DNA of 40,222 nucleotides from a virus. Its lineage: Duplodnaviria; Heunggongvirae; Uroviricota; Caudoviricetes. Within the stretch, counting starts at the first letter, position 1; every line of letters starts with the position of its first letter. The notes below the pieces were generated by a model, which saw only the letters and a program-made list of their open reading frames with translations, was not told where the DNA came from and did no database searches. The stretch is taken from IMG/VR virus record IMGVR_UViG_2778261638_000008. The stretch is one strand, 5' to 3'. The position numbers were made by a program, and so were the translations under genes. Below, piece by piece: positions 32,503 through 33,106 of this stretch.

Positions 32503-32512
32503 GTTCATCGCA

Positions 32513-32552
32513 AACACGCCATTCTAAGTTTATGAGTGGCGTGTTCTTATTA
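32513..32552 (+). terminator. Intrinsic terminator after SSB gene
   Basis: 9-bp stem AACACGCCA / UGGCGUGUU (extendable) followed by CUUAUUAAUU; lies between convergent genes. Confidence 0.6.
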
Positions 32553-32553
32553 A

Positions 32554-33084
32554 TTAGCGAGTGGACTCAACATCGGGGGGCTGCTCCTGCTCTATGGGCT
32601 GTGCCTCCGCTTCTTTTTGCTTTATAAAACTCAGAGCCTGCTCATAAAATTCAGCCGAACGCTTTTCAAGAAAACCATTATATTCGTCCAACTTGAAATA
32701 TTTAAACATCTTAACGGCGATATTATTTTTCAATTCTATTTTCCGCCAAATGGCATGCATTCTTTTAGAGTGAAAATCTCTATTCTTTTCGTAAACAGCA
32801 AATTCTTCGTTACTAACTTCTTTATCACCAATTTTGCAAATAGAGGCCCCGCGGCCAATAGGAAACTCAACGGAAGTGTTTTTTGAGTAAAGGTAGTTAT
32901 AGTGAGCTTTATCACTCTCCATAATCCTTACGTTTTGCCAAAAGGAATGATCAAGAAGGCATTTATTAATAAATTTTATCAATAAAAAATCTCGGGCTAT
33001 TAATGCAAATGGCATTAATACATATACACCTAAAAAACCGAAGCAAGCAGTAATGATAGTAGACAGAGAAACTGTTAGTTCCAT
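32554..33084 (-). CDS. Hypothetical 176-aa membrane-anchored protein (AT-rich moron)
   Basis: Strong SD AGGAG 8 nt upstream of ATG at 33084; N-terminal hydrophobic helix (STIITACFGFLGVYVLMPFALIA); AT-rich; opposite strand to flanking replication genes. Confidence 0.6.
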   Translation of the reverse strand: MELTVSLSTIITACFGFLGVYVLMPFALIARDFLLIKFINKCLLDHSFWQNVRIMESDKAHYNYLYSKNTSVEFPIGRGASICKIGDKEVSNEEFAVYEKNRDFHSKRMHAIWRKIELKNNIAVKMFKYFKLDEYNGFLEKRSAEFYEQALSFIKQKEAEAQPIEQEQPPDVESTR

Positions 33085-33106
33085 TTAATAACTCCTAAGG
33101 TTAAGT

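Follow-up and report, generated by a model that had tools for sequence, protein, structure and literature searches.

Superinfection exclusion is the classical role of small inner-membrane proteins that lack recognizable domains and are encoded by prophage morons. A moron has its own promoter and its own terminator, and its GC content deviates (PMC3594210). One such exclusion factor is gp15 of HK97, an inner-membrane protein (Cumby et al., 2012, reviewed in PMC3594210); P22 SieA targets the ejection proteins gp16 and gp20 (PMC10883804), and for SNIPE a periplasmic N-terminus, a single-pass helix and a cytoplasmic body at the genome-injection site have been shown experimentally (PMC13190303). 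Here, we analyzed a 40,222-nucleotide stretch of caudoviral DNA (IMG/VR record IMGVR_UViG_2778261638_000008; "the window" below means this whole stretch), which is a complete, integrase-bearing temperate prophage, and focused on a gene for a 176-amino-acid (aa) protein that lies antisense between the genes for a single-stranded-DNA-binding protein (SSB) and a family-A DNA polymerase (PolA). We found that this gene, hereafter the cargo gene, is very probably the cargo of an accessory hotspot: replication does not depend on it, it is exchanged horizontally and kept by purifying selection, and it is confined to accessory regions of mobile elements. More tentatively, its context suggests that the product may be a lysogen-expressed inner-membrane protein with an anti-phage role at the cytoplasmic face.

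An earlier note on this DNA, made from the sequence alone, had described an AT-rich minus-strand gene with a strong Shine-Dalgarno site that breaks a DUF2800/DUF2815/PolA cluster and starts 22 bp from the divergent polymerase start, and all of this was borne out. First, the open reading frame (ORF) is preceded by AGGAG 7 nt before its ATG (minus-strand letters around the start: TAGGAGTTATTAAATG), directly abutting the AAGG (33097-33100) in front of the PolA ATG; AGGAG, CGGAG or TGGAG stood at the equivalent position in all seven chromosomal alleles inspected. Second, the GC content of the cargo gene is 0.365, whereas SSB has 0.497, PolA 0.546 and the window as a whole 0.500; a value of 0.365 or lower is reached by just 1.7% of the 531-nt windows in the whole stretch. 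Third, exactly 22 bp (33085-33106) separate the two start codons. The same ATG-to-ATG spacing was found across seven allele classes (21 bp in strain A16), and at least one further allele, that of locus L043, has 211 bp. Finally, Pfam and PHROG assignments of the flanks agree with the interrupted cluster: a DUF2800/PD-(D/E)XK nuclease gene lies upstream of SSB, and SSB orthologues in related prophages carry the RefSeq product name "DUF2815 family protein".

Comparison with related prophages revealed that the SSB-PolA junction behaves as a swappable slot. In a megablast search with positions 31500-34000 against 5426 complete E. coli genomes, the flanks were present at ~95% identity in 159 genomes, and the matches were confined to the flanks. 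The junction had no detectable relative of the cargo gene in 158 of these 159 genomes (unrelated cargoes where inspected), and this particular allele occurred in none of the 159. A sensitive blastn search with the cargo gene yielded one weak E. coli match; strain A16 encodes a 166-aa protein with 39% identity in the same position and orientation. The three closest phage genomes (vB_EcoM-689R2 and relatives) likewise matched in the flanks alone. Six junctions were inspected in detail, and their occupants were an antisense 209-aa protein with one N-terminal and two C-terminal transmembrane (TM) helices, an antisense 199-aa protein (WP_032314218.1) with the same architecture and an unrelated sequence, a sense Nmad5 gene accompanied by an antisense gene for either an 89-aa two-TM protein or a 229-aa soluble protein, and a sense BRO-N gene. 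Among 40 evenly spaced rows of the E. coli megablast result, ~15 were of the 209-aa type and ~16 contained Nmad5, with two each for the 199-aa type and BRO-N. The commonest E. coli cargo here, the antisense 209-aa WP_000551021.1 (locus L013, 1556-2185, E. coli P4), is present in ~40% of such prophages; it has a charged middle between its TM helices, and its cluster comprises 456 members on more than 1000 contigs. Neither WP_000551021.1 nor WP_032314218.1 has a family or defence annotation. The possibility that the alternative cargoes are remote relatives of the 176-aa family was rejected (hhalign probability <1%; unrelated by BLASTP).

The same pattern extended to more distant phages that share this replication module, which is of the BPP-1/APSE type. 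BPP-1, YeP4, APSE-1 and Acinetobacter phage 4316, whose SSB proteins are 55-66% identical, have one to three small unrelated genes between SSB and PolA. The APSE-1 junction includes an antisense DUF1640 gene, whose family we take to be membrane-anchored coiled-coil proteins. No empty (contiguous) junction was observed in any relative examined, these four phages included. Thus, the expectation in the earlier note of a normally contiguous SSB-polymerase junction had to be abandoned, and the locus represents a long-standing hotspot rather than a one-off insertion because it is occupied in every relative examined. On the other hand, the proposal of a single-gene antisense accessory insert held: conservation of the gene at this position in all related phages would have contradicted it, and a relative was found in one of the 159 genomes. 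Judging from these sequence comparisons, the cargo gene is not a core replication gene. In an Edwardsiella piscicida prophage (locus L020, 6535-7559), a gene for a 278-aa Band_7/SPFH-domain protein and one for a 63-aa protein, both sense, lie between SSB and a member of the cargo family, showing that the slot can hold stacked cassettes.

Analysis of selection revealed that the cargo ORF is a real, selected gene. We recovered 17 distinct cargo alleles from related loci, encoding proteins of 161-177 aa in which the architecture and the Shine-Dalgarno site are kept, and the ratio of non-synonymous to synonymous substitution rates (dN/dS) was 0.05-0.35 for unsaturated allele pairs, which goes beyond what a chance ORF would give. 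From the lack of family annotation and the database name, solely "hypothetical protein", the ORF might have been suspected to be spurious or decaying, within AT-rich filler DNA; however, such conserved alleles, together with 75 family representatives that match end to end and an AlphaFold2 model with a mean predicted local distance difference test score (pLDDT) of 81.8, leave this reading hardly any probability, and the selection analysis effectively refutes it. Positive selection on the gene was ruled out as well, since dN/dS was well under 1, and the diversity therefore reflects old alleles instead of rapid adaptive change within alleles.

The family itself is small and specific. A word-indexed search of 5.8 billion proteins returned 18 clusters, all from Enterobacterales, all "hypothetical" and none with a Pfam domain. 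Draft assemblies of E. coli contain the identical protein, and the cluster to which it belongs at 90% identity also covers the Enterobacter cloacae complex. An exhaustive profile search of 1.84 billion representatives detected 75 proteins at E <= 0.001 (40 at E <= 1e-10), and a second word-indexed profile search added almost no further members. Nearly all of the 75 are 150-180 aa long and match end to end, which indicates a small, stand-alone, single-domain family. No named relative of the cargo protein or of all 21 family members was found in Pfam, PHROGs, PADLOC or NCBIfam, nor was there one in a sequence-profile search of the PDB, and no fold match was obtained. The best match of the cargo protein in PADLOC-DB v2.0.0 (PDC-S05, E 0.011 over 38 residues) was below significance. 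A tblastn search against 50,697 phage genomes gave no match to the cargo, and two scans of GTDB species representatives gave nothing.

All chromosomal Enterobacterales members with readable context, including those of Klebsiella aerogenes, Citrobacter koseri and Edwardsiella piscicida and ten prophage-sized IMG/VR contigs, were antisense at the SSB/PolA junction. Between prophages, the cargo proteins were 36-79% identical, whereas PolA and SSB were 89-99% identical; in the pair of loci L012 and L019, the flanking proteins shared 99% and the cargo 41%. Synonymous sites were saturated between allele classes. Such divergence over near-identical flanks implies that the alleles long predate the flanks they now have and have been reassorted among prophage backbones.

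Members of the family were also observed outside prophages. On Klebsiella IncF plasmids, the gene is solitary and lies beside insertion sequence (IS) elements, in accessory regions with resistance genes and toxin-antitoxin systems; these copies have a perfect TATAAT upstream and a hairpin with a T-run downstream. The idea that they had been carried along with pieces of the phage junction was ruled out, as no remnants of PolA or SSB accompany them. The single useful locus of a metagenome scan was a Rep3 plasmid-like contig, in which a member adjoins an IS3 transposase and a resolvase. Finally, a distant member (P0069; E 1.4e-16 to the family profile) was found in a defence island on a metagenomic contig (L044, 212-7661; SRR26473340), with the gene order DUF3800, P0069, a 159-aa gene of unknown function, HEPN AbiU2, Old (PADLOC E 2.4e-209), Type III Mod and Res. 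P0069 itself had no PADLOC match. Its 159-aa neighbor recurs beside a member in another contig (L045, 145 aa) and might be a partner gene.

These locations bear on the question of whether the protein acts against phages at all. A lysogenic-conversion factor or a factor in competition between mobile elements that has nothing to do with phages, for example a modifier of envelope stress or physiology, a protein similar to conjugative entry exclusion or another host-fitness moron, would fit the presence on conjugative IncF plasmids within accessory regions, the absence of detectable defence homology in PADLOC and the functional diversity of morons (PMC3594210). However, most members reside in one prophage hotspot, where alleles diverge deeply while the flanks are almost identical, as is typical of conflict genes; a defence island contains one member, and the plasmid copies lie outside the transfer operons. 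We therefore regard such a function as unlikely, although it deserves some weight.

The position of the gene further raises the question of how it could be transcribed. Because the gap between the start codons is 22 bp, any cargo promoter must lie inside PolA. The earlier note had argued that the promoters of both genes overlap coding sequence; this is logically right for the cargo gene, and the low synonymous variation in PolA codons 3-10 lends it indirect support, but a scan for consensus promoters detected none upstream of the cargo gene. Read on the minus strand, the conserved PolA start (TAGATTTCCAGGTCGCCCCATAGTATATTATGCAT) contains, in codons 3-4, a candidate -10-like TATATT (33118 to 33113) with an overlapping TAGTAT (33121 to 33116), and a weak candidate -35-like TAGATT (33141 to 33136) at a spacer of 17 nt. 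The codon entropy of PolA codons 3-10 (33113-33136) was 0.29, compared with 0.6-1.45 in later ten-codon windows, and the rare ATA and CTA codons that form the -10-like element were fixed in all of the 21 distinct PolA 5' ends, in a collection built with a regular expression that permitted synonymous changes at those codons. Codons 3-10 are thus under extra constraint at the nucleotide level, which is compatible with an antisense promoter, with PolA translation initiation or with a recombination anchor for cassette exchange alike.

At the other end of the gene, the earlier note had placed an intrinsic terminator at 32513-32552. A strong hairpin is present there, with a folding free energy (dG) of -20.3 kcal/mol on the plus strand (z -4.2; none of 200 shuffles folded as well) and of -18.4 on the minus strand (z -4.15); however, owing to an interrupted U-tract (CUUAUUAAUUA) and a 9-nt loop, it was not flagged by a consensus terminator scan. 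The U-tract is weak on the cargo strand (UUUGCGAUG), and the hairpin looks more terminator-like on the SSB strand. Thus, we predict an element that is terminator-like and usable from both directions, though not a textbook terminator. A known RNA element was rejected, as the segment had no Rfam match. In every cargo variant (the window and eight other loci), a different GC-rich hairpin stands straight after the SSB stop. The plus-strand hairpin would be expected to terminate transcription before PolA, which may be reached by read-through under the Q-like antiterminator (24501-24923) or from an internal promoter.

A hairpin after SSB in every variant, a junction that is always occupied and mostly by antisense genes, and a constant 22-bp ATG-to-ATG spacing could all be read as signs that the gene serves the lytic cycle or the regulation of the phage itself, either with the protein as a membrane tether for the replication machinery or with antisense transcription damping SSB-to-PolA read-through in the lysogen and the protein being secondary. 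This explanation appears improbable, given that the occupants are unrelated and some are sense (Nmad5, BRO-N, BPP-1 bbp41, YeP4), that purifying selection on the protein sequence is strong, and that stand-alone copies on plasmids and in the defence island have no phage replication genes nearby.

With regard to the protein, the N-terminal hydrophobic anchor described in the earlier note was confirmed by Kyte-Doolittle profiles, in which 19-residue windows exceed 1.6 across residues ~2-39, and by AlphaFold2. Structure prediction had been suggested there as a check, and a model built with 18 homologues (mean pLDDT as given above; predicted template modeling score 0.64) has a helix at residues 2-43, a helix at 46-65, three short strands between 70 and 90, helices at 92-129 and 138-161, and a disordered tail. 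The predicted architecture is one hydrophobic N-terminal helix, with a TM span at approximately residues 5-30, followed by a cytoplasmic helical body (31-161) that includes a small beta-sheet. The description of a Lys/Glu-rich cytoplasmic domain stood as to composition, with 16 K and 16 E in the 143 residues from 34 to 176, and its cytoplasmic side is a prediction from the established positive-inside rule. In all 24 diverse members compared, the N-terminal tail (3-7 residues) has no K/R and 1-3 acidic residues, and the 15 residues past the helix contain 2-4 K/R; on these grounds the N-terminus is predicted to be periplasmic and the body cytoplasmic (N-out/C-in) in each of them.

Conservation was concentrated in the membrane part. 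Among the 24 members (16-56% identity), P25 and R31 were invariant and Y21 and D32 were conserved at >= 90%, all four being located in the membrane helix or at its edge. Mean conservation was 0.59-0.61 in the TM and juxtamembrane helix versus 0.34-0.44 in the remainder, and the non-synonymous divergence (pN) was 0.07-0.19 in residues 1-33 versus 0.17-0.45 in residues 34-160, that is, two- to six-fold lower in the former. A second conserved site, at the end of the long helix, is K128-Y-F-K-L132 (KYFKL), which shows no variation in the closer members (Enterobacterales level); distant members have [KR]HYKQ..NPIP at this position, so that a related motif, [KR][HY][YF]K[LQ], recurs. A13, G16 and G19 were invariant in the closest alleles and moderately conserved across the wider family. 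No enzymatic, nucleic-acid-binding or known sensor domain was detected in the cargo protein by sequence or fold search.

Such a pattern might also be expected of an abortive-infection effector, in which the cytoplasmic domain would sense a phage product and the TM helices would oligomerize and depolarize or permeabilize the inner membrane, so that the cell dies before phage release. The TM helix is the most conserved part, its small residues A13, G16 and G19 and the invariant proline would suit helix-helix packing, and the cytoplasmic domain is variable, as it would be in a sensor; moreover, the distant homologue lies beside AbiU2 and Old, and the gene also occurs outside phages, on plasmids. 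However, a lone TM helix without a recognizable sensor or oligomerization domain would be a minimal pore former, and no homology to known TM effectors was found in PADLOC. We consider this mechanism unlikely on the whole, and a block of entry or establishment somewhat more likely than an abortive, membrane-disrupting one.

Taken together, we tentatively favor an anti-phage role of the cargo protein at the inner membrane, since its defence-island neighbor, the copies on plasmids and an allelic diversity of ancient origin are what a conflict gene would show. Its support comes from the hotspot behavior, the allelic diversity, the restriction to mobile-element accessory regions, the homologue in a defence island and the defence-type genes (ThsB_TIR, patatin, TIR-like) in other slots of the same prophage lineage. 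The antisense cassette has its own ribosome-binding site, uses a hairpin in common with the convergent SSB gene and probably takes its promoter from the initial ten codons of PolA. Its orientation opposes the early lytic operon; it could therefore be transcribed in a lysogen, in which this operon is repressed, and convergent transcription would silence it once the prophage goes lytic. The protein would then shield the lysogen from other phages at the inner membrane, most likely by hindering genome entry or early establishment, similarly to HK97 gp15, P22 SieA or the way in which SNIPE is anchored. Its nearly invariant membrane helix (Y21-x3-P25-x5-R31-D32) may contact a conserved host membrane component or self-assemble, and the fast-diverging cytoplasmic domain may determine which incoming phages are recognized.

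Several observations weigh against this proposal. No consensus sigma-70 promoter was detected upstream of the cargo gene, so that expression in the lysogen can only be presumed; for the constraint on codons 3-10, PolA translation initiation and a recombination anchor are equally good explanations. The protein, whose topology is a prediction, has no enzymatic or nucleic-acid-binding domain. No recognized defence gene was present among the alternative SSB-PolA cargoes (none of nine proteins matched PADLOC at E <0.03). Finally, the link to a defence island comes from one metagenomic contig, and the remaining distant members are on contigs too short or bland for context. A bolder version of the proposal, which we find rather doubtful as a whole, would be that these proteins form a new family of single-gene, single-pass inner-membrane anti-phage proteins that work through the helix motif Y-x3-P-x5-R-D; that the family is one of many cassettes in an undescribed hotspot of BPP-1/APSE-type replication modules; and that a promoter in the first ten polymerase codons drives whichever antisense cassette is installed, until lytic transcription switches it off.

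Table 1. Features of the cargo locus and of the surrounding prophage, in positions of the window
Feature	Position	Strand	Basis or remark
Cargo gene, 176 aa, ATG start	32554..33084	minus	Predicted single-pass inner-membrane protein; ORF list
Cargo Shine-Dalgarno site, AGGAG (CTCCT on plus strand)	33092..33096	minus	7 nt before ATG; read from sequence
Variable segment	32484..33112		Homology stops in the last ~18 nt of SSB and restarts at PolA codon 3 (AATATACTATGGGGCGACCTGGAAA); boundary alignment of 9 loci
SSB, left conserved flank, Enc34/Gp2.5-like single-stranded-DNA-binding protein	31954..32502	plus	PF10991 Enc34_ssDNA-bd, E 2e-43; phrog_112
PolA, right conserved flank, family-A DNA polymerase with 3'-5' exonuclease domain	33107..35170	plus	PF00476, PF01612; phrog_17, E 1.6e-123
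Hairpin, 12-bp stem (32513-32524/32534-32545), then interrupted T-tract	32513..32552		Between the convergent SSB and cargo stops
Candidate antisense promoter, PolA codons 3-12	33113..33141	minus	Sequence reading
Rz spanin	22352-22876	minus	phrog_214
Endolysin	22860-23336	minus	phrog_90
Holin	23340-23699	minus	phrog_126
Q-like antiterminator	24501-24923		
Primase-helicase	25212-27398		
CI-like S24 repressor	27744-28418	plus	
Replication operon	~29565 to 38156	plus	
Integrase	38350-39753	minus	

The layout of the window (Table 1) places the cargo gene antisense inside the early lytic operon and not among the lysis genes. The structural genes, terminase and lysis cassette are on the minus strand of the window; membership of the cargo in the lysis cassette was ruled out, as holin, endolysin and spanin lie at 22352-23699 and the cargo has no PHROG match. 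This prophage lineage occurs in ~3% of complete E. coli genomes and also in Klebsiella, Enterobacter, Citrobacter and Edwardsiella.

Other variable positions were noticed in the same lineage. Between VRR-NUC (35650-35958) and SNF2 (36744-38156), the window has a second AT-rich antisense island (35959-36722, minus strand, GC 0.34-0.38), which contains a gene for a 206-aa multi-TM DUF6338 protein (Pfam E 1e-35) and then a 47-aa Pro/Lys-rich ORF. In relatives, the slot holds unrelated antisense genes encoding a 106-aa protein, a 173-aa one-TM protein, a 161-aa protein and 234-249-aa multi-TM proteins with weak TfpB matches; it looks like a second hotspot of this lineage. DUF6338 is essentially without literature, and we found no paper on the SSB-PolA hotspot, the cargo family, DUF6338 as a defence gene or Nmad5 in prophages. 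A third low-GC (0.41) antisense gene (28837-29361, minus strand) lies between the CI-like repressor and the replication operon; its 174-aa product matches phrog_1244 (unknown function) and combines a coiled coil in the N-terminal half with a CxxC...CxxC pair at the C-terminus. Beyond the repressor, one related locus (L006) has ThsB_TIR and patatin genes where other relatives have Cro-like and VapE genes. The position after PolA is another variable spot of the replication operon: the closest sequenced phage, vB_EcoM-689R2 (L033, 10723-11484), has a TIR-like domain gene directly after PolA, where the window has an ANR-type regulator. Finally, the left end of the window (1-700) is a low-GC stretch, down to 0.35.

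If the function were confirmed, prophage-borne immunity would gain a family of very small membrane proteins without recognizable domains, and a new hotspot would be defined at SSB/PolA, with a second one at VRR-NUC/SNF2. The SSB-PolA hotspot also provides a list of candidate genes, mostly for small antisense membrane proteins of unknown function, and the pattern of an invariant helix and a variable body, the reverse of that in SNIPE, gives Y21, P25, R31, D32 and K128-L132 as mutational targets. If no phenotype were observed, the cargo would remain an ordinary hypothetical moron.

Comparison with the described systems placed the cargo protein, as far as sequence searches can tell, outside all known exclusion and defence families. 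First, with respect to morons in general, its composition agrees (GC 0.365, among the lowest 1.7% of windows), and its candidate promoter and terminator-like hairpin agree only tentatively; the notion of "extra DNA" does not strictly apply, because no empty site was found among the relatives. Second, like HK97 gp15, the cargo gene is a single-gene cassette of deviant GC content set within an operon of essential phage genes; the small products of both have a membrane anchor at the N-terminus and lack an enzymatic domain, and both have homologues confined to Enterobacteriaceae that also occur outside prophages. However, gp15 lies in sense in a tail operon, whereas the cargo gene has the antisense orientation and belongs to the replication operon; no similarity was detected between the two sequences, and the cargo slot, unlike that of gp15, holds an alternative cargo in every relative. 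An exclusion activity of the cargo protein is a proposal. Third, P22 SieA (PMC10883804) is similar in size (162/164 versus 176 aa), in being an inner-membrane protein (predicted for the cargo) and in being the product of an accessory gene that, as presumed for the cargo, the prophage expresses. At a single locus, SieA exists as deeply diverged sequence types (<30% identity) that keep a short conserved motif on the cytoplasmic side, which parallels the 36-79% identical cargo alleles and KYFKL. SieA differs in having three predicted TM helices instead of one, and no homology was detectable.

The other two systems resemble the cargo in topology and in genomic organization, respectively. The topology of SNIPE is the same as that predicted for the cargo protein. 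[quoted passage not shown] The hotspots of P2/P4-type phages (PMC9122126) resemble the SSB-PolA junction in their conserved core flanks, sharp boundaries and swapped AT-rich cargo, often of unknown function, although they belong to another phage lineage and another slot and the SSB-PolA cargo is usually a single small antisense membrane protein. Conserved flanks around unrelated inserts are common to both; recognized defence inserts, by which the P2/P4-type hotspots are also defined, were not found at SSB-PolA.

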